A DNA stretch of 64,000 nt. It comes from Elusimicrobiota bacterium. Lineage in GTDB: Bacteria > Elusimicrobiota > Elusimicrobia > UBA1565 > UBA9628. Position 1 is the first letter of the stretch. Every line of letters starts with the position of its first letter. The notes beneath the pieces are model-generated. The model saw nothing but the letters and a program-made list of their open reading frames with translations. It searched no databases and was not told where the DNA came from. Positions 2,944 to 18,697 of the stretch are shown here, one piece after another. A program made the position numbers and the translations under genes. The stretch spans positions 2,376-66,375 of the forward strand of contig JBBQVX010000003.1 in assembly GCA_038211115.1 (NCBI GenBank), in the 5' to 3' direction.

Positions 2944-3471
2944 ATGAAGAACCCCATTTTCGCCGCGATCGCCGTCCTGCTGCTCAGCGTCTGCGCCTCC
3001 GCCCAGAACGCCGGCTCGTGGGAGAAGCTCGAAGGCCAGCACAGCCGGATTTCGGAGCGCCGTACCGTCGCCGTCACCGATACGGCGGCTTGGGAGAAGG
3101 TTTGGAAGGAGCACTCGTCCGACTCCGCCGCGCCCGCCGTGGACTTCTCGAAGGAAAGCGTGGTCGCGGTGTTCCTCGGCGAGACGAAGACCTCCGGCGT
3201 CAAGATCGAGATCGTGGTCCAGCGGGACATGATCGACGCGAACCGTCTCAACGTGTTCTACAAGGAAATCCCCGCCGGCAAGAAGGGATTCTCCGCGGCC
3301 GTGATCTGCCAGCCGTACGCGATGATCAAGGTTCCCAAGACCAAGATCGTCTCTTTCGAGGTCAACGGCCGCGTGTCGACCCCGGAAGCCGCCAAGGTCC
3401 CGAGCAACCCCCGTGACACGGCCAAGGTCCGCATGCTGCTCGAGACCCTGCCGTCCTTCGACGGGCGCTGA
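2944..3471 (+). CDS. Secreted PrcB_C-like (protease complex subunit PrcB family) protein
   Basis: Signal peptide MKNPIFAAIAVLLLSVCASA. VVAVFLGETKTSGVKIEI...LNVFYKEI...CQPYAMIKVPK matches the PrcB C-terminal domain pattern as I remember it. Confidence 0.6.
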   Translation: MKNPIFAAIAVLLLSVCASAQNAGSWEKLEGQHSRISERRTVAVTDTAAWEKVWKEHSSDSAAPAVDFSKESVVAVFLGETKTSGVKIEIVVQRDMIDANRLNVFYKEIPAGKKGFSAAVICQPYAMIKVPKTKIVSFEVNGRVSTPEAAKVPSNPRDTAKVRMLLETLPSFDGR

Positions 3472-3517: not shown

Positions 3518-3546
3518 TCGACAATTCGGGTTTCCGGGCCTATACT
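3518..3546 (+). promoter_or_regulatory. Sigma70-like promoter of array gene 1 (-35 TCGACA, 17-bp spacer, -10 TATACT)
   Basis: TCGACA at 3518-3523 and TATACT at 3541-3546. The GTG start at 3553 is only 6 nt downstream and has no SD. Confidence 0.5.
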
Positions 3547-3552
3547 CCCAGT

Positions 3553-6500
3553 GTGAAGCGACCCCTCGCCTCCGCCCTCGCCTTCCTTATTGTCCTGCTT
3601 TCACCGGGTGCGCCCGCCTATCAGGCGTTCGCGCAGACCGTCGGAAAGACCGGCGGGGCTGCGGGCTCGACCGGCGACGCCGCGAACTCCGTCAACTCGG
3701 GGATCAATAACGGCGTCACCGTTCCGCTGGCGCTTCCCGTACAGACGTTGGGCCTCAACGGGACCCTCAATACCGCCGCGATCGTCCCTATCCTTAATAA
3801 CGCGGTCAATCCGGCCCTGACCCCCGCCTTGATCCCGTCGCTGACGCCGGCGGCGATTGCCGGCGTCACGCCGACGTCTCTTGTCGTGCCCCTCGCGCTG
3901 ACTCCCTCGCGCCTAGCACCTGCGACCTCGGACGGCCAGACGGGCAAGATCCTCGTTCCCGTCGCGCTCAAGCCGACGGCGAAAATCGGGACAGGCCAGA
4001 GCGGCCTGTCGGCTGCGTCGAAGCAGATCGATGGCCTGTCGCGGACCGCGGCGCCCATCGTCGAAGGAGTCAAGAACGGCGACGCGACCCTCGCCCTAAA
4101 CGGCGTTTACGAAAACGGCTCCGCGCATGGGGAACTCGGCGCGGTGAAAGGCCGCTCGGGCCTCGGTGCCCTGCGCTCCGGGCTCAAGAAGTCGGCGCCG
4201 TCGACCGGCCAGCAGACGACGGCGGAGGTGCCGGCTGCCGCGGCTCCCGCCGCCAAAGCGAACCTGTGGCAGCGCGTCAAGTCGACCTTCGATCTCTCCG
4301 AGTTCAACAAGAGCGAGAAGTCCTACATCCTCGGCCAAGCGGTCTTCCTGTTCGCGATCTCGGTGTACCTCGCCTCCCTGCCGCTGCTCGTCAAGGCGTT
4401 GACGGGCGACGCCGCGATGACGGGCGTCGCGCGCATGGTCCACTACTGGGTGTTCGGCGGCGCGTCGCTCTTCGCGGGCGCCGTCGTCGGCAAGAACCCG
4501 ATGAAGCGCATTCTCGTCGGCGCCGCCGGCGGGCGCGCCCTGCTGTTCGGCACGATCGGCGCGCTGGCGCTGTTCGGCGGCCTGCCGTGGGCGGGCTTCC
4601 TGGTGCTCGTCGGCGTGAACTCCCTGCTCGTCGCCCACAACCATCTCGTCGACATCGACACGGGCGGCGCGGCCAAAATATTCAAGGGCGCGGACCAGAA
4701 GTCCACCGATCACAAGATCGAGAAGGCCGGCTACGTCTACGACTTCATCTACTACGGCATGATGCTGGTCGTGCCGGCCCTGATCGGCCTGCCGATGGAC
4801 TGGCTCGACGGGCGCTACGGCGCGGGCATCGGCGCCGCGGCCGGCTTCTCCCTGTTCGCGGCCCTGATGGGCGTGGTTTCCTATATATACGCGAAGCGGG
4901 TGGTGACCGTCGGCGACGCGATTTCGGCGCCTTTGGCCGGAATCAAGGACTTCTTCGCGCGCGCGGCCTCCGCGATCAGGACGTTCGGGCGCATCCTGCT
5001 CGACGTGCCGCGCCGCAACTTGGCGACGGCCAAGATCATCTTCCAGAACAAGGCGATCCTCGCCCGCTCCGCGATGGCGACGATGGAGAATTTCGTCGAG
5101 GACGCGCTGTTCGCCGTCGTCCTGCCGACGTTCGCGATCGATATCCTCAAGGTCGGCGCGTTCGGCAACGGCCTGCTGCTGTCCGCGATCACCGGCGGCG
5201 GGCTCGTCGCTTCGATGTTCCTGATGAAGCGCATCCAAGCGCTGCAGAAGAAGCACGGCACCTATAAAGTCCTGGCCGGCCTCACCGCGGTCGCGGCGCT
5301 CGCCTTCGTCCCCTCGATCGGCCTGTGGCTCGTGCCGTCGATCGCGCTCGCGATTCCCGCCGTGTTCATGATGAAGCTCATGCTGCAGCCGCTGCGCTCG
5401 CGCATGCGCGCCCTGCTGCAGACGGAGATCAAGAACGATCCGAAGGCCGCGCCTCACGCCGACGACATCTACAGCCTGATGACGTTCGTCGAGGTGCTCG
5501 CGGCCGGCGCGGGCGGGCTCGCGTTCTCGTGGCTGTTCCATCATTCCGTGGCCGGGACCGGCCTCTCTTTGGCCTTGGGCGCGCTCGCGCCGATGAAGAT
5601 CATCACGATCATCCTCGTCGCCATGGGCCTCGTCTACTTCGGCGGCCTGCGCTGGGTCAAGCAGCAGCTCAGCAAGCCGACGCATACCGTCCACCAGTCC
5701 CCCGAAGGCAACGAGGCGAAGATGCTCGAGCGCCTCGCGACCAGCCTCCAGGAGAACGGACTGCCCGAGTACAAGACCGCCGTCGTCAACGGCGAGGCGA
5801 GCGAGGACCTTCCCACGATCGCCGTGCTGGCGCCCGCGTCCCGCCACAAGATCGCGCTCGCGCGGGAGGGCGGCCGCCAGTCCCCGGGCGACTTCCATCT
5901 CGTGCTCGACTCCTCGTGGCTGATCCAGGAGACCTATCCCGACGGGCGCACGAAGCTTCTCGTCAAGAAGGCCGTGACCTTCGACGAAAAGGGCCAGGCC
6001 ACCGTCGTCGACTACGAGATTCCTCGTCGCGTACGCTACTTCGCGGACTACTTCACGCTCGGCTCGAACGACCGCGACGACGGCGTCGTCTTCGAGAAAA
6101 ATCTCGACGTGCCGCAGTCGAACTCGCTGCAGCTCGAGAAGGTCGTCAACGACAAGCTCGGCACGCGCCTGATCATGGCCGCCAGGGGCGTGGCCGTGCC
6201 CGCGACGTTGGCCCTGCTGATGCCCCTGCATCACCTCGCGGGCCAGCCGATGCTGACGCACGGCAGCGTGCAGGTTGCATTGATGCCCGCGGCCGAGTCG
6301 CGCGAGGCCGAGGTCGGCCGGCTCGTCGACGAGTATCTCGCGAATTTCAAGGGGGAGGAGCTCGTCGTGAAGCCCTCCGGGCCGCAGTTCCACTCCGGCC
6401 GCGGCGTGAAGTTCTTCAAGAAGTCCGAACGCGACGCGATCGTCGCGCACGCGCTGGCGCTGGCCGTCGACGGCCAGATGACGGAAGACGGCGCCGTCTT

Positions 6501-8373
6501 GCTGGACGAGCGCGTCAATTCGGCTCCCTTGAGCCGCGACGGCCGCAAGATGGAGACGACGGGGCGCATCCTCGTCGCGCGTACGCCTTGGGGCGGCGCG
6601 GTGACCACCGGGATGTTCGGGCGCGTCGGACCGTGGGGCAAGCCGACGACCGCCGAGGCGGCCGACCCGCGCGACAACGCGGTGATCGACTCGATGGAGA
6701 ATCTGTACGCCGAGTGGAAGAAGGCGGGCCTGCTCGACGACCACAGCGCCAAGGAGCTCGACGCGCTGATGCGCAAGACCGGCGAGGACGCGCTGCTCGC
6801 GATCGCCGAGTACGAGAAGAAGTTCGAGCGTAAGGACGGCGAGCCCTACCAGGCTCAGAGCGACATGATCGGTCTCGACGTGATGGTCGAGAAGCGCGAC
6901 GGCAAGCTCGTTCCCGTCATCATCGAGGTCAACGACCACGACTCCGGCGGCCAGTTCAACCTCGATAAGATGGGCCTGTACGGCATCGGCGAGCACTCCC
7001 GCGAGTGGGTCGCGACGATGCTCCAGCGCGCGCGTCGCGACGCCCTCAAGGGCAAGCGCGTCGTGCTCGTCGGCGCCGGCTACGCGGGCAAGCGCTTCAT
7101 CTTCGAGAAGGCGAAGAAGCTCGGCGTCGAGATCATCCTCGTCGACAAAAAGACCCCGTTCGTGTCCGACCTGATCCGCGACGGCCTGATCTCCGAGCTC
7201 ATCGAGACGGACAACGCCAAGCCCAAGGAAGCGCTGGCCTCGGCCAAGAAGAAGCTGCAGAAATCGATCCGCAAGAACGGGAAGATCGAAGGCATGACCA
7301 CTTTCTGGGAAGACGACGTGCCGCTGACGGCGGACCTGGCCAAGGAGCTCGGCCTGCCGTACCACACCCAGGATGCCGCCAAGTCCGTGCGCAGCAAGGC
7401 CGTGACGCGCGCCGTGATGGAAAAGGCCGGCTTGCCGACGCCGAGAAACCGCAAGGTGTCCTTGCCCGTCAAGATCGGCGCGGGCGACGCCGTCTACGCG
7501 AACGCGGTCGACGCGGCGCGCAAGCAGTTCGAGAAGGATCTGGTTCATGTCGGCTATCCTGCGGTGCTCAAGCCCGCGTTCGGCGCCGCCGCGATGGGCG
7601 TCAAGAAGGTGACGAACCACGCCGAGGCCCTGGCCGCCTTCGACGAAGTCCGCGCGATCGTCACGCCCGAGGTCGACCCGATCTTCGCCCAGGGCGCGGA
7701 CCTCGTGCTCGAGCAGTACCTCGACGGCCGCGAGTACGACGTCGACGTCGTGATGCGCGGCGGCAAGCCCATTTTCGTCTCCGTCACGGACAACTGGCCC
7801 ACGCGCGAGCCCTATTTCCTCGCGACGGGCTCGAGCCTCCCGAGCCGCCTGCTCAACGCGAAGGAGCAGAAAGAAGCCGGCGATCTCGCGATTTTGACCG
7901 CGCAGGCCCTCGGCCTGACCGACGGCGTGGTCCACATCGAGGGCAAGTACACGAAGGAAGGCGCGCGCATCATCGAGGCCAACGGCCGCATGGGCGGCGA
8001 ATACGTCCACGATTGGGTGGAGGCCGTCTGGGGCGTGAGTCTCGTCGAGGAGAACTTGATGGCCGCGACGCGCGTCGGCGGCAAGCCGTTCATGGCGCCG
8101 CAGCCGCTCACGCATCTCGAGGGCGAGTTCATCATCCCGACCGAGTCCGGCGTCATCTCCGACTTCGACCTGCCGGAGTCGGCGCGCCTGCAGGCCGGCT
8201 TCCACGAGCTGCGCGTGAAGAAGAAGGTCGGAGACCGCATCGCGGTGCCGCCCCACGGCTACGAGCGCGCGGGCATGCTCGTCGCGCGCGGGAAGACCAC
8301 GGCCGAGGCCCAGAAGAACCTCGACGCGCTCCGCGCGAATCTCCTCCTCAACATCAAGCCCGAGAAGAAATAG
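3553..8373 (+). CDS. Array protein 1 (1606 aa): shared N-terminal module + MFS-like permease + two ATP-grasp ligase modules
   Basis: Signal peptide ..APAYQAFA|QTVG, then a low-complexity stretch (LTPALIPSLTPAAIAGVTPTSLVVPLALTPS). MFS-like TM block at ~4320-5660 (motif-A-like GKNPMKRILVGAAGGRAL). ATP-grasp 1 at ~6150-6960 (ELVVKPSGPQFHSGRGV, VIIEVNDHDSGG). ATP-grasp 2 at ~7050-8373, L-amino-acid-ligase/carnosine-synthase-like (KRVVLVGAGYAGKRF, YPAVLKPAFGAAAMGV, EQYLDGREYDVDV, IIEANGRMGG). Confidence 0.85.
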   Translation: MKRPLASALAFLIVLLSPGAPAYQAFAQTVGKTGGAAGSTGDAANSVNSGINNGVTVPLALPVQTLGLNGTLNTAAIVPILNNAVNPALTPALIPSLTPAAIAGVTPTSLVVPLALTPSRLAPATSDGQTGKILVPVALKPTAKIGTGQSGLSAASKQIDGLSRTAAPIVEGVKNGDATLALNGVYENGSAHGELGAVKGRSGLGALRSGLKKSAPSTGQQTTAEVPAAAAPAAKANLWQRVKSTFDLSEFNKSEKSYILGQAVFLFAISVYLASLPLLVKALTGDAAMTGVARMVHYWVFGGASLFAGAVVGKNPMKRILVGAAGGRALLFGTIGALALFGGLPWAGFLVLVGVNSLLVAHNHLVDIDTGGAAKIFKGADQKSTDHKIEKAGYVYDFIYYGMMLVVPALIGLPMDWLDGRYGAGIGAAAGFSLFAALMGVVSYIYAKRVVTVGDAISAPLAGIKDFFARAASAIRTFGRILLDVPRRNLATAKIIFQNKAILARSAMATMENFVEDALFAVVLPTFAIDILKVGAFGNGLLLSAITGGGLVASMFLMKRIQALQKKHGTYKVLAGLTAVAALAFVPSIGLWLVPSIALAIPAVFMMKLMLQPLRSRMRALLQTEIKNDPKAAPHADDIYSLMTFVEVLAAGAGGLAFSWLFHHSVAGTGLSLALGALAPMKIITIILVAMGLVYFGGLRWVKQQLSKPTHTVHQSPEGNEAKMLERLATSLQENGLPEYKTAVVNGEASEDLPTIAVLAPASRHKIALAREGGRQSPGDFHLVLDSSWLIQETYPDGRTKLLVKKAVTFDEKGQATVVDYEIPRRVRYFADYFTLGSNDRDDGVVFEKNLDVPQSNSLQLEKVVNDKLGTRLIMAARGVAVPATLALLMPLHHLAGQPMLTHGSVQVALMPAAESREAEVGRLVDEYLANFKGEELVVKPSGPQFHSGRGVKFFKKSERDAIVAHALALAVDGQMTEDGAVLLDERVNSAPLSRDGRKMETTGRILVARTPWGGAVTTGMFGRVGPWGKPTTAEAADPRDNAVIDSMENLYAEWKKAGLLDDHSAKELDALMRKTGEDALLAIAEYEKKFERKDGEPYQAQSDMIGLDVMVEKRDGKLVPVIIEVNDHDSGGQFNLDKMGLYGIGEHSREWVATMLQRARRDALKGKRVVLVGAGYAGKRFIFEKAKKLGVEIILVDKKTPFVSDLIRDGLISELIETDNAKPKEALASAKKKLQKSIRKNGKIEGMTTFWEDDVPLTADLAKELGLPYHTQDAAKSVRSKAVTRAVMEKAGLPTPRNRKVSLPVKIGAGDAVYANAVDAARKQFEKDLVHVGYPAVLKPAFGAAAMGVKKVTNHAEALAAFDEVRAIVTPEVDPIFAQGADLVLEQYLDGREYDVDVVMRGGKPIFVSVTDNWPTREPYFLATGSSLPSRLLNAKEQKEAGDLAILTAQALGLTDGVVHIEGKYTKEGARIIEANGRMGGEYVHDWVEAVWGVSLVEENLMAATRVGGKPFMAPQPLTHLEGEFIIPTESGVISDFDLPESARLQAGFHELRVKKKVGDRIAVPPHGYERAGMLVARGKTTAEAQKNLDALRANLLLNIKPEKK

Positions 8374-8472: not shown

Positions 8473-9750
8473 ATGAACCGATCACTCGCCGTTTTCGTCT
8501 CCCTTCTCCTCGCGTCGTCTTCCTCGGCCCAGACCATCGGCCTCGTCGCGCCGAACTCGGCGGGCGGCGCCCCGGCGCTGATCATTCCGAGCACTCCGTT
8601 GATGGACGGCCATCTGGGCGTTCCCTCTTTGCTCTCTCCGTTGTCGTTGACCCCGTCGCTTTCCGTGTCGGCGGCGAGCATCGCCCCCACGCCGGTCCCC
8701 GCACTCGTTCCCGCGGCGGTCGTTCCGTTTTCCGTCAATGGCGTCCCGACGGTCGCCGCGTTCGGCGTGGCGAAAACGCTTTCCTCCAATCTGTCCGCGG
8801 CCGCGTCCGAAGGGCGCGGCCAGGCTCCGGCGCTCAACGCCTCGTTCGACGGCCTAAAGGCGGCGGCCACGCCCGATGAAGTCTCCGTTCCGAATCCGTC
8901 CGACGCGTTCGTCCTCGAGGCCCAGCGCCGCTTCGCCGCGCTCAAGGCCTCGGAGGACCAGAACCCCGGCGTCCTCCCTGAGGGCGCGATCCCCAGCGAC
9001 GACGACATGCATGGCCGCCTGGACCGGCTCCCCTCGACCAACCCCGAGCGCATGAAGTACATCGTCGATCTCTTCAAACTCGGCGGCGCGACCGACGCGG
9101 ACATCCGCCTGCAGGACGCCGGCAAGGGCCGTAATAACGTCATCGTGACGATCAAGGGCAAGACCGATCGCGTCATCGTCGTCGGCGGCCACTACGACAA
9201 GGTCAGCGAGGGCTTGGGCAAGATCGACAACGGCACGGGCTCGACGATGGTCGCCAACCTGTACCAGGCCATGCACGGCACGCAGCCCGACGCCACGCTC
9301 GTCTTCATCGCGTTCGCGCGTGAGGAAGAGGGCCTGTACGGGTCGCAGGCGTACGTGAAGTCGCTCGACAAGGCCGCGCGCGGAAAGATCGACGCGATGA
9401 TCAACCTCGATACGCTCGCGGTGGACGGCACGTTCTCCTGGAAGAACAACTCGACGCGCGCGATGCTCGACCGCTTCGCGAAAGTGTCGCGTGAGAGCGG
9501 CCACGCGATGAAGGAAGATTATTTGAACGGCGGCGACGCGGACTCCTCGACCTTCCGCGACGCGGGCATCCCGGCCGTCACGATCTACGGCGCGTCGCAG
9601 GACGTGATCTTCGACATCATCCACTCCGAGCGCGACAATATGTCCGCGTTCAACCTCCAGCACTACAAGAACGCGTACCTGCTCGTGCTCGAGGCCATCA
9701 AATCTCTCGACCGGACCCCGCTGGGTCCCGTCGCGCGCGGCGAAATCTGA
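8473..9750 (+). CDS. Array protein 2 (425 aa): shared N-terminal module + M28 family metallo-aminopeptidase
   Basis: Signal peptide ..LLASSSSA|QTIG; VPSLLSPLSLTPSLSVSAASIAPTPVPALVP; ..APALNASFDGLKAAATPDE. M28 motifs VVGGHYDKV, IDNGTGST and FAREEEGLYGSQ. Confidence 0.88.
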   Translation: MNRSLAVFVSLLLASSSSAQTIGLVAPNSAGGAPALIIPSTPLMDGHLGVPSLLSPLSLTPSLSVSAASIAPTPVPALVPAAVVPFSVNGVPTVAAFGVAKTLSSNLSAAASEGRGQAPALNASFDGLKAAATPDEVSVPNPSDAFVLEAQRRFAALKASEDQNPGVLPEGAIPSDDDMHGRLDRLPSTNPERMKYIVDLFKLGGATDADIRLQDAGKGRNNVIVTIKGKTDRVIVVGGHYDKVSEGLGKIDNGTGSTMVANLYQAMHGTQPDATLVFIAFAREEEGLYGSQAYVKSLDKAARGKIDAMINLDTLAVDGTFSWKNNSTRAMLDRFAKVSRESGHAMKEDYLNGGDADSSTFRDAGIPAVTIYGASQDVIFDIIHSERDNMSAFNLQHYKNAYLLVLEAIKSLDRTPLGPVARGEI

Positions 9751-9822: not shown

Positions 9823-9889
9823 GGGACCATTGCCCTCGAAATTTAGGGCCCTTGGACCCGTCGGTTTGGAAAGAGGCCTGTGATACTAT
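9823..9889 (+). promoter_or_regulatory. Conserved upstream element + -10-like box of array gene 3
   Basis: GGGACCATTGCCCTCGAAATTTAGGGCCCTTGGACCC (9823-9859), 22 nt, GATACT/TACTAT (9882-9889), ATG at 9897. Confidence 0.45.
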
Positions 9890-9896
9890 GGCCTCA

Positions 9897-12242
9897 ATGA
9901 CGCGCGAGATTCGATCGATGCACGGGGATATCGTGAAGAGAATAACGGCGAAGCAGCTCGTCTCCATTTTTTGCAGCTCCATGATCATGTGCGGCGCTCA
10001 AGCGCCGGCCTTCGCGCAGGTTATGCGCGGAGAGCTCGGCGGCGCGGCCCTCCATACGGGGCCCGTCGGCGGAGTCCTCTCCGCCGTGCCGACCGGAATA
10101 AACCCCGCCCTCAACGGCGGGGTTTCCTCTATACAGGGAACCTTGGCTCCGACTTTTTCGGCGCCGAGCGCCCTGGTGCCCGCTCTCATCGCTCCCGTCG
10201 CCCTGATCCCCGTCACGGCCGCGCCCGCGAAGAGCGAACCGGTCAAGGCACAGGCCGTCGTCCCCGTCGCGGCCATCACGGCGGCGAAGACGCTGAACGG
10301 CGAGCTCAAGGCCGCTTCGACCCAGGGCAAGGATGAAGCCCCGGCGCTGAGCGCCACGTTCGACGGCCTCAAGGCGGCCGCGACCGGCGACGAATCCGAC
10401 TCCGTGCCCTCCGCCGAGACCCCGTCCCCGCTGCCCGACGGCGCGAAGCTCGGAAAGCTCTACCCGCGCGTCGTGGTCATCCTCGACACCCTCGGCAAGC
10501 CCGCGGGCAAGGACGACAAGATCGTCAAGTACATCGAGACGCTCGTCACCAACAACGTGAAGGTCGTCTTCGTCACGGCCCGCCCCGAGAAGGGGGAGAA
10601 CTCCGCCGAATCGATGCTGATCGGCCAGCTCAAGGTCCGCACGGGCAATCCCGTCGTCGTCGTCAGCTACAACGGCGCGCGCGTCACCTCGCACAGCTCC
10701 CGTGCCGAGAACCCGAAGCCGCTGATCCCCGACCAGCTTCCGTTCGCCGAGAAGACCGTCGCCCGCTTCCGCGAAATCACCGCGGACGTCAACAAGAAGC
10801 TCGGCGTGAAGGGCAAGGTCGAGGAATTCGGCCAGCCGAGCCTCGAGGCTCCTTATATCTACGGCGGCACGCTCCCGAAAGGCGTCGACGAGGCCAAGTG
10901 GACGACGACGTTCAACCGCGCGCTCAAGGCGGCCGGTTTCGCGTATAAGATCGAGCTGTCGAAGAACGCCGAAGGGCAGACGGTCTACTTCACCCAGTCG
11001 ACCGCGCTGAAGCTCAACGCGGGCCGCGTGTTCAACGCGATCTACGCGATCGCCCCCGAGCTCAACCCCGAGAACGGCGGCGCCGGCGTCCTCAAGCCGC
11101 AGCAGGTCCTCATCCTCGCCGACCCGGCGAAGGCGCCGAGCTTCCTTCAGGCGCTTCCCGGCAAGGGCTACTTCATCCACGGCGTCAACGACACCGAGTC
11201 TCTCGAGCGCGCCATGGAGGCGGTGCTCGGCGGCAAGGCGCTCGACCAGGTCTCGGTCAACAAGTACGAGCTGCGCGACTACATCGAATGGCTCTCGCGC
11301 CGCCAGCGCTACGGCTCCTCGTCCTCCTCGGCCCCGCAGGGCAAGGGCGGGCGCTCCGGCGTGATCGCGCCGCGCCGCTCCGGCGACGCCTCGGGCTTCT
11401 CGAAGGTGCCCTTCTACCGGGGCATCATCGTCAAGGAAGTCATGTCCCGCCTGTACCATCTCATGAAGAACGGCGCGTTCGAGGAGTCCACCCTCGACGC
11501 CGGCCTCGACCTTCTCGAGAAGCTCTGGAAGTACCCCGAGGCCAACGGCATCCACCTGCCTGAGGAGCTCAAGCTCGGCCGCCAGACCGGCGCGTTCAAG
11601 GCCCAGTCGAAGGGCGGCCTCGAGGGCTCCAAGCGCTGGCTGAAGAACTACTACCACCGCCACTTCCCCGACTTCCCGCGCAACGTGAACCAGAAGGTTG
11701 CTGGCCGCCTCCTGCGCCTCGCTCGCGACGGAGACTCGGTGACGCTCCAGTATGAGTCGCCTTACACGGGCCGCAGCTACAAGGTCTTCGTTCGCCCCGA
11801 CCGGACGGAACTGTGGGAGGACGAGCACGGCTACGTCCTCGTCGCTCATGTGTACCGCACGGGCAAGGAGCCTTACCAGAAGGGCTTCGACGAGTCGATC
11901 GAGGTCAACCTGATCGGCCGCGCTCTCCTCGAGGGTGACGCGCAGAAGCGCGCCGACGGCCATTGGTACGTCAACGGCGAGGCCGACCCGCGCATCCAGG
12001 TCGTCTTCCACTATATGACCCGCGACCTCCAGGCGATCATGACGCCCGCCGAGATCGATTCCCACACCCCCGAGGTGACCGCGCTGATCGAGAAGCGCGA
12101 GAACGACAAGGAATACCAGAAGTGGGTGGAAGCCAAGAAGGTCGAGGAAGAGAAGGCCCGGGTGAACCTGAAGCGCACGGTCACCCGCGCGACGAATCTG
12201 AAGGAAAAGGAGAAGAAGGCGAAGAATAAGGGGGCTAAGTAA
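9897..12242 (+). CDS. Array protein 3 (~781 aa): shared N-terminal module + degenerate HAD-like domain + degenerate PD-(D/E)XK-like C-terminus + Lys-rich tail
   Basis: The track ORF starts at TTG 9852. I prefer ATG 9897 (MTREIRSMHGDIVKRITAKQL..APAFA|QVMRG), which lies 7 nt after the -10-like box; ATG 9888 is an alternative. APALSATFDGLKAAATGDE. HAD-like VVVILDTLGK...VVFVTARPE...VVSYNGARV. The C-terminus (YVLVAHVYRTGKEP) is paralogous to gene 4. Tail KEKEKKAKNKGAK. Confidence 0.8.
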   Translation: MTREIRSMHGDIVKRITAKQLVSIFCSSMIMCGAQAPAFAQVMRGELGGAALHTGPVGGVLSAVPTGINPALNGGVSSIQGTLAPTFSAPSALVPALIAPVALIPVTAAPAKSEPVKAQAVVPVAAITAAKTLNGELKAASTQGKDEAPALSATFDGLKAAATGDESDSVPSAETPSPLPDGAKLGKLYPRVVVILDTLGKPAGKDDKIVKYIETLVTNNVKVVFVTARPEKGENSAESMLIGQLKVRTGNPVVVVSYNGARVTSHSSRAENPKPLIPDQLPFAEKTVARFREITADVNKKLGVKGKVEEFGQPSLEAPYIYGGTLPKGVDEAKWTTTFNRALKAAGFAYKIELSKNAEGQTVYFTQSTALKLNAGRVFNAIYAIAPELNPENGGAGVLKPQQVLILADPAKAPSFLQALPGKGYFIHGVNDTESLERAMEAVLGGKALDQVSVNKYELRDYIEWLSRRQRYGSSSSSAPQGKGGRSGVIAPRRSGDASGFSKVPFYRGIIVKEVMSRLYHLMKNGAFEESTLDAGLDLLEKLWKYPEANGIHLPEELKLGRQTGAFKAQSKGGLEGSKRWLKNYYHRHFPDFPRNVNQKVAGRLLRLARDGDSVTLQYESPYTGRSYKVFVRPDRTELWEDEHGYVLVAHVYRTGKEPYQKGFDESIEVNLIGRALLEGDAQKRADGHWYVNGEADPRIQVVFHYMTRDLQAIMTPAEIDSHTPEVTALIEKRENDKEYQKWVEAKKVEEEKARVNLKRTVTRATNLKEKEKKAKNKGAK

Positions 12243-15023
12243 ATGAAATCGCTCCCGGTTCTTCTGTCGTTCAGCCTTCTTCTCAACACCGTCGCTCCGG
12301 CGATGGCGCAGACGATCAGATATACTCCCGGCGCGAACGTCGGGCTTAGCGGCTCGGCCGGCGCGGCGCTCGTCGCTCCGGTTCCGAATTCGTTGCCGTC
12401 ATTGACGATGCCGTCGCTGTCCGTTCCTTCTCTTAATACGCCCGCCATCCCTTCGGCCATGGTCCCCGCCGCCCTCACGCCTTCGGCCCTGACCGTCTCC
12501 GCCGTTCCCGCCGCGGCGAAAGCCGTTCTCCCCGTCGCGGCACAGTCCCCGTCCGTTCCCACTGCTCTGCAGGCGCTCAAGTCCGCCGTCCTCCCCGCCG
12601 CGTCCATCTCCGAGAGCCCGAAAGCATCCGACAACCACGAGGGCGACGCCGCCTTCGACGGCTCCTCCGAGCGCGAATCCGTCCTCGCGCCGGCGTTCGA
12701 GCCTCCGACCGCCTCCGTCCCCGAGCCCGCCGTCGCCGAGCAGGACGAGGTCCAGGGCGACAACATCCCGCAGCGCCCGCAGCTTTCCTTCCAGCCCGCG
12801 CAGAAGAGCGCGCTGACGTCCATCGACGCCGGCCAGGGCCTGTACGGCACGATGAAGCTCGTCAAGGACAACCCCTATAGCCGCGACTGGTGGAACGCGT
12901 ACAAGAAGGGCGCGGAGATCGACGTCGTCGTGCGCGGCGAGAACGTCTACAACCGCCCGACCCAGATCACGTTCGCCGCGACCAAGGCGATCGGCAAGCT
13001 CACCCGCGAGGATTTCGAAGGGACGATCCCGAAGCACATGATGCAGGCCGGCATCGTCGCCCTGCGCAAGGACCTCATGGTGAAGCTCGAGGAGAACCGC
13101 CGCCGCTGGAGCCCCGAGCAGCCGCCCGTCGGCCTCGACACGAAGGTCCGCGTCGTCAAGTTCGAGTCCTACCTCGACCTCTTCAAGAAGACGAACGGCA
13201 AGGACGCCATCCCCGTCGCCGAGGCGCCCGTCGAGCGCCCCGCCCTCAAGGTGAAGCCCGAGGGCGCGCTCAAGCCTCTGTCCCTTTTCCTGCCGCGCGC
13301 CGTGATGCTCGACCTCGACCTCTTCGACGGCCCGGTCTCCAAGGAGACGCTGTCGGACATCGCGAAGCTCCAGCGCACCGGCGTCTACTTCGTCATGTTC
13401 TCGCGCAAGCCGTACGAGGCCGCGAACGCGATGAAGGACAAGCTCGTCAAGCAGCTCTCCGCCTACCAGATGAGCGTGCTGATGCCGATCCGCTTCATGA
13501 TGGTGACCGACGACGGCGCCGTCATCTCCGAGCTGCCCCGCGGCGGCAGCCCCGAGGCCGTCGACGTCTTAGCCTTCAGCTTGGCTGACGTGGAAATCCT
13601 CCGCGACGCCGCGAAGAAGGCCTCCGAGGTCATCGGCCTGTCCCCGCGCTCCATCGAGGAAATCCGCCAGAGCCCGCTCGTGGAGCGCGAAAACCGCTTC
13701 GGCGACCAGAAGGAGTTGCCGCTCGGGCCCGATCCGCGCGTCCGCTACGAGGTCCGCCTGCCGAAGTCCATGTCGGATCGCGCGCTCGGCGAGTGGCTCA
13801 GCGCGTTCGACGGCGCGATGAAAGCCCAGGGCATGAAGGTCGTCTCGCACCTGACGACCCTGCCCGACGGCAAGCGCCAGTTCGTCGTCGCCCGCACCAC
13901 GATCGAGGGCTCGATGGACCGCCTCAACGCCGCGCTCGGCGAGAAGTTCGGCCTGTACCTGAACCCCGGCGACGCGCTCGTCATCTCCGCGGATCCGAAG
14001 ATCATGGCCGCGAACTCGAAGTCGATCGACGTCGCCGCGCTCACGGGCCTCAAGGGCGCCGAGCTCGTCGACAACGCGCTCGGCTTGATGCTCGGCGAGC
14101 ACCGCGAGAACCAGGCGACGGACCTCTCCGGCTCCGCGTCGCGCATCGCGTCGTTCTCCTACAACAAGGGCCGCTACCTCTCCGAGATCCTCATCAAGAT
14201 GGACAACGAGGAGCAGAACATCAACTTCTTCTCCGGTCACGTGGTCCACTCCGCGATGGACTGGCTGATTTGGAAGCTGCAGAACGGCGTGAAGCCGACC
14301 CGCGAGGAGTTCGCCGCGCACCTGACCGAGCACTGGAACTCCGGCCTCCGCGAGTTCAAGGCGGTCGGCATGCCCGCCGCGCATCTGGCGGACAGCTGGC
14401 TCAAGGCGTCGCTCACGCGCGCCGACAGCATGTACACGCTCGTCAACAAGATCAACGACCATAAGGAGTTCCTGGTCGGCACCGAAATCCCGAACTTCTT
14501 CGTGCTCAAGGACTTCCAGCGCAAGTCGGGCGAGCTCAAGCGCCGGTACATCCTGCACACGATCTTCGACTTCATCGCGCTGCGTCCGGACCCCAAGCGC
14601 CCCGGCCACGCGACGCTCGTCATCTACGACTTCAAGACCGGCCCCGCGAAGACGGGCCCGAAGCTCGACAAGGACATCCAGGTCCTCATGTACGCGCTGT
14701 TCGCCAACAATAAGTGGGTGGGGGAGCAGTTCCCGGCTCCGTACCTTGCCGGCGGCAAGGCCTACACGATCGACGACGTTTCCGTCGAATTCATCTACAG
14801 CGGCAAGATCCAGCCCACCAACATCAACCGCTGGAGCCTCGACAAGGTGCGCTCGCGCATCATCGGCGCGCTCAACCGCATCCACGCGGCCGAACAGAAG
14901 CTGTTCGGCAACGTCCCGCCGAAGAAGAAGCTGACGCCCGCTCAGGTCAAGGCGAAGGCCGCGAGAGCGGTGAAGGCCAAGAAGGCGAAAGCCGCCAAAG
15001 CCAAGGCCGCGAAGAAGAGCTAA
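12243..15023 (+). CDS. Array protein 4 (926 aa): shared N-terminal module + HAD-like domain + PD-(D/E)XK (RecB/Cas4-type) nuclease domain + histone-H1-like Lys/Ala tail
   Basis: ATG directly follows the gene 3 stop (TAAATG). Signal peptide ..VAPAMA|QTIRY; NSLPSLTMPSLSVPSLNTPAIPSAMVPAALTPSAL; AAFDGSSE. HAD-like VMLDLDLFDGP...YFVMFSRKP...MVTDDGAVI. Nuclease motifs FDFIAL (Asp codon 14568-14570), VIYDFKTG (14628-14639) and QVLMY (Gln 14679-14681). Tail KAKAARAVKAKKAKAAKAKAAKKS. Confidence 0.85.
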   Translation: MKSLPVLLSFSLLLNTVAPAMAQTIRYTPGANVGLSGSAGAALVAPVPNSLPSLTMPSLSVPSLNTPAIPSAMVPAALTPSALTVSAVPAAAKAVLPVAAQSPSVPTALQALKSAVLPAASISESPKASDNHEGDAAFDGSSERESVLAPAFEPPTASVPEPAVAEQDEVQGDNIPQRPQLSFQPAQKSALTSIDAGQGLYGTMKLVKDNPYSRDWWNAYKKGAEIDVVVRGENVYNRPTQITFAATKAIGKLTREDFEGTIPKHMMQAGIVALRKDLMVKLEENRRRWSPEQPPVGLDTKVRVVKFESYLDLFKKTNGKDAIPVAEAPVERPALKVKPEGALKPLSLFLPRAVMLDLDLFDGPVSKETLSDIAKLQRTGVYFVMFSRKPYEAANAMKDKLVKQLSAYQMSVLMPIRFMMVTDDGAVISELPRGGSPEAVDVLAFSLADVEILRDAAKKASEVIGLSPRSIEEIRQSPLVERENRFGDQKELPLGPDPRVRYEVRLPKSMSDRALGEWLSAFDGAMKAQGMKVVSHLTTLPDGKRQFVVARTTIEGSMDRLNAALGEKFGLYLNPGDALVISADPKIMAANSKSIDVAALTGLKGAELVDNALGLMLGEHRENQATDLSGSASRIASFSYNKGRYLSEILIKMDNEEQNINFFSGHVVHSAMDWLIWKLQNGVKPTREEFAAHLTEHWNSGLREFKAVGMPAAHLADSWLKASLTRADSMYTLVNKINDHKEFLVGTEIPNFFVLKDFQRKSGELKRRYILHTIFDFIALRPDPKRPGHATLVIYDFKTGPAKTGPKLDKDIQVLMYALFANNKWVGEQFPAPYLAGGKAYTIDDVSVEFIYSGKIQPTNINRWSLDKVRSRIIGALNRIHAAEQKLFGNVPPKKKLTPAQVKAKAARAVKAKKAKAAKAKAAKKS

Positions 15024-15145
15024 GGCGGGCGTCGTCTCAGCCGTCTGGCCCTTCCGGCAGTCCTAGAAGGCCTAGGCCTCTTGTTATAGAGGAGGGGGTC
15101 CTAGGGCCCTTCTGCAGAAAGACGGGGGAGGGTATCATGTGGGTA

Positions 15146-18100
15146 ATGAAGATGACCCGCCAAGCCCTCGCCGTGATCCTCTCGATTCTGGTCGCCGAGG
15201 CCTCCTTCCCCCAATACGCCCTGGCCCAGGTGATCGGCAACAGCGGCTCGGCCGCCGGGATTTCAGGCGTGTCGGGCGTCGTGCCGAAGATCGAGCTCAA
15301 CGGCGGCTTTTCCGCGCTGTCGCCCGCGCCTTCCCTGCTCGCCCCGTCGCTGCTGGGCGGCGTCCCCGTTCTTAGCGCGCCGTCGATCCTGACGCCCCTC
15401 GTCGTCAATCCGATTTCCGCGATTCCCGTCCTGCCCATCTCCGCTCTGTCCGGCGTTCCGGCCGCGGCCCGCGCGCTCGCCGTCAACGCGCCCGTCGACG
15501 CCGCCAAGATCCCTTTCAACGCCCAGTCCCAGCTGACGCTCACGGGCGAGAAGCTCACCGCCGCCGCGGCCAAGGGCTCGGACCAGTCCGGAATCCTCGA
15601 CACTTTCTTCACCGGCGCCAAAGAAATCGCCTCGACGTTGACGGGCGAAACAGCCGCGGGTTTCCCCGCCGCGCTGGCGCCGCAGCTTTCCGCTCCGTCC
15701 ATCGGCGACGGCAAGGCCGTGGCCCCCACGCCCATCACCCTCGAGGCGATGGCGATCGATCCGGCGAAGTCCATCGCCGTCCGTCAGGACGCCGTCGCCC
15801 AACTCGCGAAGACGGACGGCTCGAAGGAGAGCCTCCAGCGCGTCGCCGACGCGAACCCGCAGGGCGGCGCGGCCGACTACGAGATTCACCGCTCGGCGCT
15901 GAAGGCGCTCGCGGAGCAGGGCGTGGTCAAGAGCCTTCGCGCCGTTTCCGAGGCCCACAAGGAGGAGTTGCTCGCCCGCCTCGTCTCCGATAAGCCCTCC
16001 TCCGCCGTGTTCGACTACGACGACACTCTCGAGAAGTTCCGCGAGCCGATCTCCCCGGCGGTCGCGGCCGGCTTGCAGGCGTCGAACGACGCCGGGGTCA
16101 AGACCGCGATCCTGACCGATCGCCCCGACGCGAAGAAGAACGACAAGGACGTGACCGTCCTCGACTCGATCGCCTCGATGACGCCCGCGCAGAAAGCCAA
16201 GCTCACGGTCGGCTCCAACAGCGGCGCGCGCCTGAGCACCTTCGACTCCGAGGGCAAACAGGTCGTCGCGTTCGACGCGGCGCTCAAGTTCACCGAAGCC
16301 CAGGCCGCCGCGATCACCGCCGCCTCGGCCAAGACCGCCGACAAGTTCGGCCGCTTCGAGTACAACGGCGCCGAGGAGAATCTTTCCGCCTTCAAGTGGG
16401 TCCGTTTCCTGCCGCTCGGGATGCCCGCCGAGACCGTGCAGGCCGCCGCCGAGTTCATGCAGGCCGAGCTCGACGCCGCCGGCGCGGGCGTGACGGTCTC
16501 CGGCCGCCAGGCCGCCGATGCGAAGAACCCCTCTTACCTCACGATCTCACTCCTCGATAAGACCGTCGGCATCCAGGCGTTGCGCGAGAAGGCCGGCTTC
16601 GGCGGGCCGATGCTCCTCGTCGGCGACTCGTTCTTCGGCACGCGTATGGTGGACGCCGACATGACGAAGGCGGCCGGCGCCGGCTCCCTCACCCTCGCGG
16701 TCGGCGGCCTCGCCGATCCTCGCATCGACAACGTGTTCGTCTGGCCCACCAAGGGCGCGGAAGCCTCCGCCGAGATCCTCGGCGCGCTCGGCACGGCGAA
16801 GCCCGCCGCGCCGAAGGGCGCGCTGCGCCGCCTCGGCGACAAGCTCCTCAACCTGATCGGCTGGAACGCGCCCGTCGTCAAGGCGCCCGGCGCCGACGAT
16901 CCGATCAACTGGAAGACGTTCCTCGGCCTCGTGATCCCGCGCATCCCGAGCATGGGCGCGTACATGCTCGTGACCATCGCGTTCGTCGCGATCGCGGTGC
17001 CCGTCGTCGGCTGGACCGGCTACGGCGTCATGATGTCGCTTTCTCCGATGGCCGGCATCGCCGCCTCGAAGATCATGGGCAAGGCCGTCAAGAACATGTC
17101 GGCCCGCAACGCGATGGCGCTCAACACGCTCCTGCGCGTCGGCTCGCTGATGCTGCTCCCGACCTTCTGGTTCTTCGGCGTCGTCAACGTCGGCACGATC
17201 CTGCTCGGCGCGCTCGCCGAGGGCTGGCTGCTCTCCTCGATGATGATGACCGAGGGCTCCTTCATCAAGGTGCTCTTCCCCGCGAAGCAGTTGGGCAACA
17301 TCAACGGCGCGCTGTTCCAGATGTTCCCGGCCGTCCAGGTCATCCTCGGCCTGTTCCTCGGCATCGGCCACTTCGCCGACATGATCAACCCGTTCATGGT
17401 GTTCGCCGGCGCGGCCGCGATCAACCTGCTCGTCGTGCTGCCGATCGTCTGGAAGATGATCCCGAACGTGATGCTGAGCGACGCTCCCGCCGCTGCGAAG
17501 GCCGCCCTCGTCCCGTTCAAGACCAAGGCGCTGGCGTTCCTCAAGGACAACGCGAAGCCGCTGCTGGCGCTTGCCGTGGCCATCGGGCTGTTCGCCGCGA
17601 TGACGTTCTGGGCGCCGATCGCGACCCTGCCGTTCCTCGTCGCGCACGCCGGGCTCAAGACCTCGCTGCCGATCACCGCGGCGCTCGTGTACTGGATTTC
17701 GCGTAGCGCGGCGTTCAAGGGCCTCGTGAAAGGCCGCACGAGCGAGGCCTCGGCCGAGGAGAAGGCCCTCGTCGAGAAGCGCGGTACGCTCGCCTCCGAG
17801 ATCGCGGACCTCCGCCGCGGCGGCGCGGATATCGCGTCCGTCGGCGCCAAAGAAGACGAGCTCGCGGCCGTCTCCTCCGAGCTCGCGACTCACCAGGGCC
17901 GCCAGTGGAAGTCCATCAAGATGATGGCCCTCGGCACGGCGATGTACTACCCGCTGTACCTGATCGCAGCACCCCACGTCGCCGAGATTCTCGCCGGCCC
18001 GCAGCACAAGGGCGCGATGATCGGCCAGTTCCTCGGCGCGTTGTTCTTCGGCAGCTGGATCTCGACCGCGGCGCGCACCAAGTTCCCGGACATCAAGATT

Positions 18101-18697
18101 CCGTTCACGGGCGGCAAGAAGACGATCGGCGCGCACCGGCTCGTGCAGGCCCTCGTCGCGGCGCTCGCCGGCGCCTGGGTGTTCACGAAGATCGTGCCCG
18201 GCAGCGCGCTCGCGGCCGCCGCGGCCGTCGCGATCGTCGCCGGCCTGATGGCGCTCTCCGCGCGCATCACCGACAAGGGCTGGATCAAGTTCGCCGGCCT
18301 CGGCTTCGCCACCGTCTGGCTGCCGTTCGTCGTGTGGATGTGGCCGCTCGCGATCCCGTTCCTGACCGTGCAGACCGCGATGTTCATCAGCCTGATCGCG
18401 GCCGGCCTGTTCAACGGCCCGAGCTTCGTGAGCCTCATCATCTATCTGCAGCGCAACACGGCGCGCTCGGAAAGCAGCGAGGTCACCGGCATCCAGGGTT
18501 CGCTGTTCAACGCGTCGATCTCGGCCGCGTACGCGCTGATCACGATCATCAGCGGCTTCCTCAATCCCGCCTACCCGATGGTGCTCGCCGCGATCGGCCT
18601 CATCAACGTGCTCATCGGCATGAAGTTCTGGAACGCCGACAAGAGCCTGCCGGGCCTGCCGAAGACCTTCTTCACTCCTAAAGCCCCGAAGAAGTAG
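15146..18697 (+). CDS. Array protein 5 (~1183 aa): shared N-terminal module + HAD phosphatase domain + MFS-like permease
   Basis: Track ORF 14714..18697 overlaps gene 4 in its 5' part. The likely start is ATG 15146 (MKMTRQALAVILSILVAEASFPQYALA|QVIGN); 15137 and 15152 are alternatives. LSPAPSLLAPSLLGGVPVLSAPSILTPL. Canonical HAD motif I FDYDDTL (~16010-16030), ILTDRP, LLVGDSFFG..DADM. Polytopic MFS-like block at ~16900-18697. Confidence 0.85.
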   Translation: MKMTRQALAVILSILVAEASFPQYALAQVIGNSGSAAGISGVSGVVPKIELNGGFSALSPAPSLLAPSLLGGVPVLSAPSILTPLVVNPISAIPVLPISALSGVPAAARALAVNAPVDAAKIPFNAQSQLTLTGEKLTAAAAKGSDQSGILDTFFTGAKEIASTLTGETAAGFPAALAPQLSAPSIGDGKAVAPTPITLEAMAIDPAKSIAVRQDAVAQLAKTDGSKESLQRVADANPQGGAADYEIHRSALKALAEQGVVKSLRAVSEAHKEELLARLVSDKPSSAVFDYDDTLEKFREPISPAVAAGLQASNDAGVKTAILTDRPDAKKNDKDVTVLDSIASMTPAQKAKLTVGSNSGARLSTFDSEGKQVVAFDAALKFTEAQAAAITAASAKTADKFGRFEYNGAEENLSAFKWVRFLPLGMPAETVQAAAEFMQAELDAAGAGVTVSGRQAADAKNPSYLTISLLDKTVGIQALREKAGFGGPMLLVGDSFFGTRMVDADMTKAAGAGSLTLAVGGLADPRIDNVFVWPTKGAEASAEILGALGTAKPAAPKGALRRLGDKLLNLIGWNAPVVKAPGADDPINWKTFLGLVIPRIPSMGAYMLVTIAFVAIAVPVVGWTGYGVMMSLSPMAGIAASKIMGKAVKNMSARNAMALNTLLRVGSLMLLPTFWFFGVVNVGTILLGALAEGWLLSSMMMTEGSFIKVLFPAKQLGNINGALFQMFPAVQVILGLFLGIGHFADMINPFMVFAGAAAINLLVVLPIVWKMIPNVMLSDAPAAAKAALVPFKTKALAFLKDNAKPLLALAVAIGLFAAMTFWAPIATLPFLVAHAGLKTSLPITAALVYWISRSAAFKGLVKGRTSEASAEEKALVEKRGTLASEIADLRRGGADIASVGAKEDELAAVSSELATHQGRQWKSIKMMALGTAMYYPLYLIAAPHVAEILAGPQHKGAMIGQFLGALFFGSWISTAARTKFPDIKIPFTGGKKTIGAHRLVQALVAALAGAWVFTKIVPGSALAAAAAVAIVAGLMALSARITDKGWIKFAGLGFATVWLPFVVWMWPLAIPFLTVQTAMFISLIAAGLFNGPSFVSLIIYLQRNTARSESSEVTGIQGSLFNASISAAYALITIISGFLNPAYPMVLAAIGLINVLIGMKFWNADKSLPGLPKTFFTPKAPKK

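Follow-up and report, generated by a model that had tools for sequence, protein, structure and literature searches.

The window analysed here is a stretch of 64,000 nucleotides from an Elusimicrobiota bacterium (assembly GCA_038211115.1, contig JBBQVX010000003.1, positions 2,376 to 66,375 of the forward strand), and the subject of this study is one gene near its beginning, which encodes a fusion protein of 1606 amino acids. From its N-terminus onwards, the protein presents a signal-peptide-like leader, a low-complexity linker, a block of transmembrane helices, and two successive modules of the ATP-grasp type (Table 1). It is very probable that this architecture joins a transporter of the Major Facilitator Superfamily (MFS) to a double ATP-grasp enzyme of the carnosine synthase 1 (CARNS1) type. 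An earlier reading of the window, made from its letters alone and referred to below as the sequence-only reading, had described the gene as a single polypeptide that fuses an exported leader, an MFS-like permease, and two ligase modules facing the cytoplasm.

The gene is a single uninterrupted reading frame with a GTG start and zero frame changes, and all the motifs quoted in the sequence-only reading (ELVVKPSG..GRGV, IIEVNDHDSGG, YPAVLKPAFGAAAMGV, EQYLDGREYDVDV, and IIEANGRMGG) are found in its translation. The length of an open reading frame (ORF) is weak evidence of coding by itself here, because the opposite strand carries an ORF of 1386 amino acids (4096-8256, -) that overlaps the gene, has no support, and is an expected by-product of the 68% guanine plus cytosine content (65-74% around the gene). 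The stronger evidence comes from the homologues, given that 39 of them were found among the 5.8 billion proteins searched, with identities of 41-85%, lengths of nearly always 1550-1630 amino acids, and a coverage of 99-100% of the query, and every one that bears a name comes from a metagenome-assembled genome of the Elusimicrobia. The window gene was also compared codon by codon with six close loci. In the MFS block, 84 synonymous and 48 non-synonymous codon differences separate it from its closest homologue (L006), and the comparison shows purifying selection. Given both the full-length homologues and this selection at the codon level, the fusion is genuine, and the single polypeptide of the sequence-only reading stands, with the same collinear order in 27 of the 49 Elusimicrobia loci and in 10 of the 11 metagenome loci described below.

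The joining of separate genes through an artefact of assembly or a frameshift has a negligible probability, and is ruled out by the recurrence of the same collinear ORF in dozens of independent assemblies, obtained in different studies and from different samples. What speaks for such an artefact is the complete 3.8-Mb Elusimicrobiota genome CP096137.1 (L004/L053), in which the orthologue is broken into three overlapping frames, with stop-to-stop segments of 895, 1054, and 975 amino acids, as the result of either pseudogene formation or frameshift errors in that assembly. Such a break is exceptional, and the three frames together still span the whole protein.

Table 1. Features of the fusion gene and its neighbourhood, with coordinates in the window and the evidence on which each assignment rests.
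Feature	Coordinates	Strand	Basis
175-aa exported PrcB_C-like protein, upstream	2944..3471	+	Pfam PrcB_C, NCBIfam denti_PrcB, signal peptide
Promoter-like element TCGACA-17-TATACT	3518..3546	+	sigma-70-like consensus match only, 10/12 positions
Whole gene, 1606-aa fusion protein plus stop	3553..8373	+	ORF, full-length homologues, purifying selection
Sec-type signal-peptide-like segment, residues 1-27, VKRPLASALAFLIVLLSPGAPAYQAFA followed by Q	3553..3633	+	inspection, conservation
Low-complexity linker, residues 28-250	3634..4302	+	variable length and sequence, frame kept
Divergent 12-helix MFS domain (predicted), residues 251-705	4303..5667	+	AlphaFold2 and Foldseek
ATP-grasp module 1 (predicted), residues 706-1165, equivalent to the N-terminal half of CARNS1	5668..7047	+	AlphaFold2 fold, invariant ligands
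Putative module 1 ligand residues	K940 6370-6372; D1109 6877-6879; E1125 6925-6927; N1127 6931-6933	+	motif conservation
ATP-grasp module 2 (predicted), residues 1166-1606, L-amino-acid-ligase / carnosine-synthase type	7048..8370	+	Pfam, PDB, motifs
Putative module 2 ligand residues	K1340 7570-7572; E1475 7975-7977; N1477 7981-7983; R1479 7987-7989	+	motif conservation
M28 (clan MH) aminopeptidase with the same leader type, downstream	8473..9750	+	Peptidase_M28 5e-31, M20 1.6e-6
o796, leader-bearing	9852-12242	+	HAD-phosphatase-like motifs, no family match
o926, leader-bearing	12243-15023	+	PD-(D/E)XK nuclease domain and HAD-like motifs
1186-aa leader-bearing protein	15137-18697	+	HAD motif, no family match
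1624-aa leader-bearing fusion	19799-24673	+	transmembrane helices, Peptidase_M48 (642-965), canonical MFS_1 (1039-1367)
1076-aa leader-bearing fusion, LSPGSSAYNAAAQT	24817-28047	+	Peptidase_M50 (site-2-protease-like) membrane domain and Peptidase_S8 subtilase

The transmembrane block could not be classified by sequence comparison, given that none of 20 homologues matched the Pfam MFS model at E<=0.05 and that a profile of the block found zero PDB chains at E<=10, and its assignment was resolved only by AlphaFold2 and Foldseek. TIGR00900, a drug/H+ antiporter family, gave a sub-threshold match (E 3.8e-5, 23 bits against a cut-off of 320). The AlphaFold2 model of the block, built on 21 homologues, has a predicted local distance difference test score (pLDDT) of 84, a predicted template modelling score of 0.82, and 12 long helices, and its central loop contains a long amphipathic helix. 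Foldseek matched this model to 252 PDB entries at E<=1e-3, and the 50 that were listed are all MFS transporters, with MdfA, SPNS2 (TM-score 0.71/0.77), sialin, MFSD2A, PepT, MelB, and NupG among them. On account of this structural evidence, the block is filed under the MFS fold despite the curated models that missed it, and the model indicates an MFS protein that constitutes a sequence family of its own.

The MFS-like permease of the sequence-only reading is thus supported by the predicted fold, and its range of 12-14 transmembrane segments narrows to 12 in the window protein, so that 14 do not apply to it; in some homologues, a hydrophobic insertion in the central loop would, as read from their sequences, add two helices. 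The motif-A-like loop that had also been proposed is retained in part. The loop between helices 2 and 3 reads G309-AVV-G-K-N-P-M-K-R, against the motif-A pattern G-x3-D-R/K-x-G-R-R/K, and it keeps the basic residues, whereas the Asp is absent and a Pro is found in place of the second Gly. The block resembles the MFS drug/H+ antiporters and the Spinster-type transporters (MdfA, SPNS2) in its 12 helices, two six-helix bundles, and long central loop. It differs from them in being too divergent for a match to Pfam MFS or a PDB profile, in its acid-less motif A, in two unusual invariant motifs (NHLVDIDTGGAAK after helix 4 and QPLRSRMRALLQ after helix 10), and in its occurrence only in fusion with ligases. 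Within the protein, conservation is highest in this block, with 86-92% identity among relatives that have far more diverged ligase modules.

Module 2 is the part of the protein that curated families describe best, with scores above the cut-offs for PF18130 ATPgrasp_N (37.0 against 27), PF13535 ATP-grasp_4 (67.3 against 27), and PF18603 LAL_C2 (48.2 against 29.4), a set of three domains that was matched in 20 of 20 homologues. Among the L-amino-acid ligases in the PDB, it matches 3VOT (4.2e-15) and 4WD3 (1.7e-8), as well as BacD. Its residues K1340, E1475, N1477, and R1479 are invariant in the 20 homologues, and by these comparisons module 2, a putative ligase, is assigned to the L-amino-acid-ligase family.

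Module 1, on the other hand, resisted classification by sequence, since its sole Pfam match is a weak one to PF14397 ATPgrasp_ST (E 0.017, and 8e-5 in some homologues) and its profile matched no meaningful PDB chain. It was assigned through its AlphaFold2 model (pLDDT 88), for which Foldseek returned 364 PDB matches at E<=1e-3, the 50 listed being all ATP-grasp enzymes. Nearest in fold are Ddl, RimK (5zk6, 5zct), and tubulin tyrosine ligase (E 1e-8 to 1e-7), along with DcsG and ArgX, and the TTLLs, LysX, and Pby1 are found among the other fold neighbours. The module shares the ligand pattern K...D...E-x-N with the group of Ddl, RimK, and tubulin tyrosine ligase, which are its best structural neighbours, and K940 (in VVKPSG), D1109 (in GLDVM), and E1125-V-N1127 show no variation among 20 homologues. 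It differs from that group in having no detectable sequence similarity to it, in its length of about 460 amino acids with extra inserts, and in query TM-scores of 0.35-0.45. When 1.84 billion representative proteins were searched with the module 1 profile (E<=1e-3), only 302 relatives were recovered, and generic ATP-grasp proteins were absent from the matches. The modelled fold therefore places module 1 among the ATP-grasp enzymes as a previously unannotated family. An ATP-dependent ligation by this module is argued for by its invariant ligands and by the existence of a stand-alone form (see below), and some caution applies to its role as a second synthetic step, because the known CARNS1 reaction is a single one.

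The first tier of matches to the module 1 profile consists of Elusimicrobia proteins, and the second (1e-69 to 1e-30) of proteins of about 930-980 amino acids that are matched in their N-terminal half. The named members of this second tier are 'carnosine synthase 1-like' proteins from the molluscs Liolophura and Babylonia, and others come from the mollusc Batillaria, the protist Ancyromonas, and the amoebozoan Ceratiomyxa. A BLASTP comparison of residues 700-1606 with the CARNS1-like protein of Liolophura gave an E-value of 1e-94, with 29% identity over 849 collinear columns that cover both modules. In a multiple alignment with eukaryotic CARNS1-like proteins from outside the vertebrates, the motifs EGGRQ, NDKLxTR, VVVKPSG, GxD, IEVNDHD, and ExNxRxGG are held in common, together with WVxTMLxRS..GKxVLVVGAGGxSK at the junction. 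Most of the eukaryotic proteins, P0113, P0104, P0103, P0106, and P0111 among them, retain the module 1 motifs VVVKPSG, GxD, and IEVNDHD, which have been lost in a few (P0144, P0141).

Judged from these alignments, the two modules together correspond to the CARNS1/ATPGD1 architecture, in collinear order, rather than to an ad hoc pair of ligases. The module 2 domain set (ATPgrasp_N plus the ATP-grasp core) is identical to that of CARNS1/ATPGD1 (EC 6.3.2.11). The name 'carnosine synthase', which the Joint Genome Institute (JGI) has given automatically to several of the homologues, is thus right at the family level, because of the collinear homology and the motifs shared in both halves and at the junction. 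In CARNS1, the C-terminal ATP-grasp domain alone is annotated, and we know of no function assigned to its N-terminal half. Our comparison identifies in this half another ATP-grasp module, whose ligands are intact, and it may be a functional one, with a catalytic role of its own. CARNS1 performs one ligation, acting on free amino acids to make a dipeptide, and in eukaryotes it is a cytosolic enzyme. The eukaryotic CARNS1-like proteins, of about 930-980 amino acids, have neither leader nor transporter, and the window-type module 2, unlike that of eukaryotic CARNS1, is exchanged between strains. What is new is the fusion of an MFS block and a leader to the CARNS1 architecture.

For the sequence-only reading, this means that the two ATP-grasp modules are present as proposed, module 1 by its predicted fold and both by their retained ATP/Mg ligands, the loss of which had been named as grounds for rejection. 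The suggestion that module 2 resembles an L-amino-acid ligase or carnosine synthase agrees with the LAL_C2 domain, the match to 3VOT, and the collinearity with CARNS1. The pairing of the two modules, however, is not specific to the MFS fusion, since the CARNS1 architecture pre-exists. That reading knew of no MFS protein fused to a double ATP-grasp enzyme, and our search of the literature likewise found nothing on MFS and ATP-grasp fusions, nor any paper on Elusimicrobia ATP-grasp enzymes or on bacterial homologues of CARNS1.

A scan of 185,579 species-representative genomes of the GTDB found 49 loci, all but three of which are titled Elusimicrobia or Elusimicrobiota. The architecture of the window gene, with leader, MFS block, and both modules (class A), is present in 27 loci, while about six have the leader and both modules without the MFS block (class B), and four have only the leader and module 1, as proteins of about 680 amino acids (class C). 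In five of the long forms, the leader is followed by a different MFS-like block, both modules, and a C-terminal extension (class D); a sixth long form (L038) has an unrelated N-terminus, and the other seven loci run into a contig end. Among 11 metagenome loci that were found through the MFS block, 10 have it fused to ligases and the eleventh ends at a contig edge, so that the class A block has never been seen without ligases in the 49 GTDB loci or the 11 metagenome loci.

Some other arrangements were observed in these searches. For example, P0035 (2150 amino acids) has three ligase modules, with an MFS block followed by an L-amino-acid-ligase (LAL) module, module 1, and a further LAL module, and two Elusimicrobia ORFs of about 5940 amino acids (P0070 and P0201) carry module 1 in mid-protein, one of them being annotated as a partial sigma-70 factor. 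The leader with module 1 alone is found in P0057 (679 amino acids), in L001/L040 (contig_1343, 1.65 Mb) and L002, where there is no MFS block or module 2 nearby. This stand-alone gene is preceded by a PrcB_C gene in L002 and by a PrcB_C fragment in L001, and contig_1343 is labelled 'uncultured delta proteobacterium', unlike all the other loci.

The two modules have not diverged evenly between close relatives. Module 2 falls into two main types, one 75-94% identical to that of the window and the other about 50, 63, and 40% identical over its three subdomains, and a few intermediate and chimeric forms are also found, such as the chimera P0005. Module 1 likewise exists in two sequence types (P0002-P0025 compared with residues 706-1165 of the window protein, and with residues 1166-1606 for module 2), and the distant relative P0025 carries a LAL_C2 domain of the window type. 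This mosaic pattern points to the exchange of ligase cassettes through recombination. Given an exchange of the module 2 cassette, the product may differ between strains, and a single fixed specificity, such as that of the carnosine synthases for beta-alanine (or GABA) plus L-histidine, is unlikely because module 2 varies between them.

Upstream of the coding sequence, a promoter-like element ends 7 nucleotides ahead of the GTG start, and such sites occur three times, where shuffled sequences would be expected to give 0.6. A Shine-Dalgarno-like sequence cannot be seen before the start codon, and, from this arrangement, the mRNA may have little or no 5' untranslated leader. The first 27 residues present the features of a Sec signal by inspection only, with an MKR n-region, a hydrophobic core of 13 residues, and the sequence AFA before Q. 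This segment has the conserved motif SPGxPxY..A.AQ and keeps 89-93% identity among close homologues, its codons showing synonymous changes. It is followed by a linker of about 220 amino acids, rich in A, G, P, S, T, L, and V, in which an uncharged Pro-rich stretch of about 78 residues leads to a VYENG (FDG-like) motif and then to a K/R-rich end, and which remains in frame in the six close loci despite its changes in length. A hidden thirteenth helix was sought in the linker, and no hydrophobic segment conserved across the homologues was found in Kyte-Doolittle windows of 19 residues, the best windows being Pro-rich and lying at differing positions in each homologue (values of 0.6-1.8).

These features bring the leader into conflict with the location of the ligases. 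The face of the MFS block that holds both of its termini has 34 Lys and Arg residues, against two on the other face, and this charge bias, under the positive-inside rule, together with the need of the ligases for ATP, would place them in the cytoplasm. If the Sec signal peptide were cleaved, on the contrary, the run of 12 helices after it would leave the ligases outside. In the three layouts that were counted by reading the sequences, leader and ligases are separated by an even number of helices, with none in classes B and C, two in the variant L039, and 12 in class A (the hydropathy count of class D was too noisy), so that the linker and the ligases would always be on the same side of the membrane. 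In the two-helix variant L039, the positively charged flank is the one next to the linker. The leader is more likely to be a membrane tether that keeps its cargo inside than a cleaved signal for the export of ATP-dependent enzymes. The sequence-only reading was right about the signal-peptide-like features of the leader, and its cytoplasmic ligases agree with the charge bias; it overlooked that the two clash, the leader and the even helix count both disagreeing with that location.

The leader is not restricted to the fusion gene, since the same type heads at least seven consecutive genes of the + strand, between 3553 and 28047. In this cluster, it consists of a signal peptide that ends in A-x-A-Q, an uncharged stretch of 80-130 amino acids rich in Pro, Ala, Ser, Leu, and Val, and an FDG-like motif, and the cargo that follows is very different in each of the seven genes. 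The three genes downstream of the M28 aminopeptidase have the HAD-like motifs VVILDTLG, VMLDLDLFDG, and FDYDDTL ... GDSFFG, and neither o796 nor o926 has an NCBIfam or PDB match. HAD-like and PD-(D/E)XK proteins are normally cytoplasmic types of enzyme. The shared leader suggests, by its presence on such different cargo, a sorting or tethering device specific to this lineage. Immediately around the fusion gene, the triad formed with the upstream PrcB_C-like gene and the downstream M28 gene is kept in most of the loci that reach far enough. The 1624-amino-acid protein, with its M48 and MFS_1 domains, is a second fusion of an enzyme and an MFS block in the same cluster, and the M50/S8 fusion, together with the PrcB-like gene (2944-3471), is reminiscent of the pairing of PrcB and a subtilase in dentilisin.

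Two known systems provide a frame for the function of the fusion. The bacterial L-amino-acid ligases (BL00235, 3VOT; RizA-type, 4WD3; BacD/YwfE, 3VMM) are similar to module 2 in sequence and in the possession of LAL_C2, and they are soluble single-module enzymes of about 410-470 amino acids with a separately encoded exporter, whereas in the window protein the ligase shares one chain with a second module and the transporter. In gene clusters for dipeptide antibiotics, such as that of bacilysin, the L-amino-acid ligase is found alongside a separate MFS exporter, and the window protein, by analogy, may share this logic of an ATP-grasp ligase combined with an MFS exporter. MprF, to which the sequence-only reading had likened the gene, is an aminoacyl-phosphatidylglycerol synthase and flippase that uses aminoacyl-tRNA, has a membrane part that is not MFS, and makes a lipid product. 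The likeness holds as a concept only, as both combine a synthase with a translocator of the membrane in a single chain, and it does not extend to sequence. Membership of MprF was rejected because the scans of the window protein with Pfam and NCBIfam found no MprF-related family, and the fold neighbours are MFS and ATP-grasp proteins only.

The mechanism that we prefer, with a probability of roughly 0.5 for the whole of it, is that of a cytoplasmic CARNS1-type ligase mounted on an MFS transporter, in which the synthesis of the product is coupled to its export. The protein would be placed in the inner membrane, with the 12-helix MFS block followed by a cytoplasmic enzyme, similar to CARNS1/ATPGD1, that contains two amide-ligase modules. 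Module 2 would convert a carboxylate to an acyl-phosphate with ATP and Mg and join it to an amine, which would give a dipeptide-like product, while module 1 would add a second residue or prepare a substrate. With the ligases attached where helix 12 ends in the cytoplasm, the product would emerge at the inward-facing opening of the MFS block and be exported, and the two flanking proteins, the exported PrcB-like one and the M28 aminopeptidase, may afterwards work on this product, or together with it, beyond the cytoplasm. The swapping of module 2 cassettes between close relatives would make this product differ between strains. The coupling to transport, its direction, and the fate of the leader are parts of this mechanism that we infer, and the preference for export over uptake has weak grounds, which are the similarity to TIGR00900, the diversification of the cassettes, and the precedent of clusters with a ligase and an exporter.

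Several observations weigh against this mechanism of synthesis coupled to export. The forms of classes B and C carry the same ligases behind the leader without an MFS block, which indicates that the transporter is dispensable for the enzyme, and eukaryotic CARNS1 needs no transporter and has a dipeptide as its only known product, so that module 1 may not represent a second synthetic step. The fold neighbours of the MFS block are a mixture of importers, exporters, and lipid transporters, which does not fix the direction of transport. Besides the signal peptide and helix number considered above, an N-terminal segment of this type is also found on neighbours that are exported proteins.

Uptake with trapping, or vectorial ligation, is a serious rival to export because the neighbours of the gene are peptidases, although it is rather unlikely overall. 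In this case, the MFS block would import an amino acid or amine, possibly freed outside by the M28 enzyme and other peptidases, and the fused ligases would convert it to a dipeptide, which would keep the gradient inward and could serve as a buffer, osmolyte, chelator, or storage form. Parallels are known in the acyl-CoA-synthetase-coupled uptake of fatty acids and in LplT-Aas. The exported, peptidase-type products of the flanking genes (M28, PrcB-like), the S8, M48, and M50 fusions further along the cluster, and the importers among the fold neighbours (PepT, MelB, NupG, and MFSD2A) would all fit such a role, as would carnosine itself, which in animals is an intracellular buffer and is not secreted. 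The weak similarity to the efflux-type TIGR00900 points the other way, as do the exporters with which the known L-amino-acid-ligase clusters are paired and the cassette-like diversity of module 2, which is more typical of secreted or surface products than of a housekeeping solute. Either direction of transport can be combined with the tentative possibility that module 2 is the sole working ligase, with module 1 in a regulatory, scaffolding, or oligomerisation role with a nucleotide site. The single ligation of CARNS1, its annotation through the C-terminal domain alone, and the eukaryotic P0144 and P0141, devoid of the module 1 motifs, are consistent with this. It accounts less well for the invariance of K940, D1109, E1125, and N1127, which are kept in most of the eukaryotic CARNS1-like proteins, for the existence of module 1 alone as a complete protein of about 680 amino acids, or for its own division into two sequence types.

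The remaining alternatives concern where the ligases act and on what. It is improbable that the leader acts as a genuine Sec signal, with ligases that work outside the cytoplasm, whether in the periplasm, on the surface, or in a target cell, even though the canonical n-region, hydrophobic core, and A-x-A are present in all classes, the same leader is found on the M28 peptidase and the subtilase fusion, which are of normally exported types, and the even number of helices (0, 2, or 12) would keep the linker and the ligases on one side. Such a location would apply at the least to the forms that lack the MFS block (leader with module 1 alone or with both modules) and, through the parity of the helices, to the MFS form as well. 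The periplasm is not known to offer the ATP that an ATP-grasp enzyme needs, and the 34 Lys and Arg residues against two place the termini of the MFS block in the cytoplasm. The charged flank of L039 adjoins the linker, the eukaryotic homologues are cytosolic, and some of the leader-bearing neighbours have domains of cytoplasmic type (HAD-like, PD-(D/E)XK). A wider version, to which we give an equally small chance, is that the leader-bearing genes, at least seven in number, encode a lineage-specific set of enzymes sorted to the envelope, the surface, or a target cell; if true, this would demand a supply of energy or ATP outside the cytoplasm or an unprecedented topology for an MFS fusion. It is also quite doubtful that module 1 is a ligase of protein or peptide tails of the RimK, TTL, or LysX type, which would extend the C-terminus or a side chain of its substrate, possibly one of the leader-bearing neighbours, instead of producing a free small molecule. 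Its fold neighbours do include RimK, tubulin tyrosine ligase, the TTLLs, ArgX/LysX, and Pby1, but the small-molecule enzymes Ddl and DcsG score equally, the homologous CARNS1 acts on free amino acids, and no candidate for a carrier of the LysW type was seen next to the gene.

Finally, these results indicate that enzymes of the carnosine-synthase type exist in prokaryotes, where they are, by the present searches, essentially confined to the Elusimicrobia, and such bacterial relatives of CARNS1 may help to trace where the animal enzyme came from. The stand-alone and fused versions offer material for testing the activity of module 1, and the natural cassette variants are a resource for studies of specificity. 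A ligase that is hard-wired to an MFS block would be a compact and testable model of the coupling of synthesis to transport for small amide-linked products. The conflict between leader and topology, repeated across a cluster of enzyme fusions, may in turn reflect an unrecognised device for membrane targeting or sorting in this phylum.

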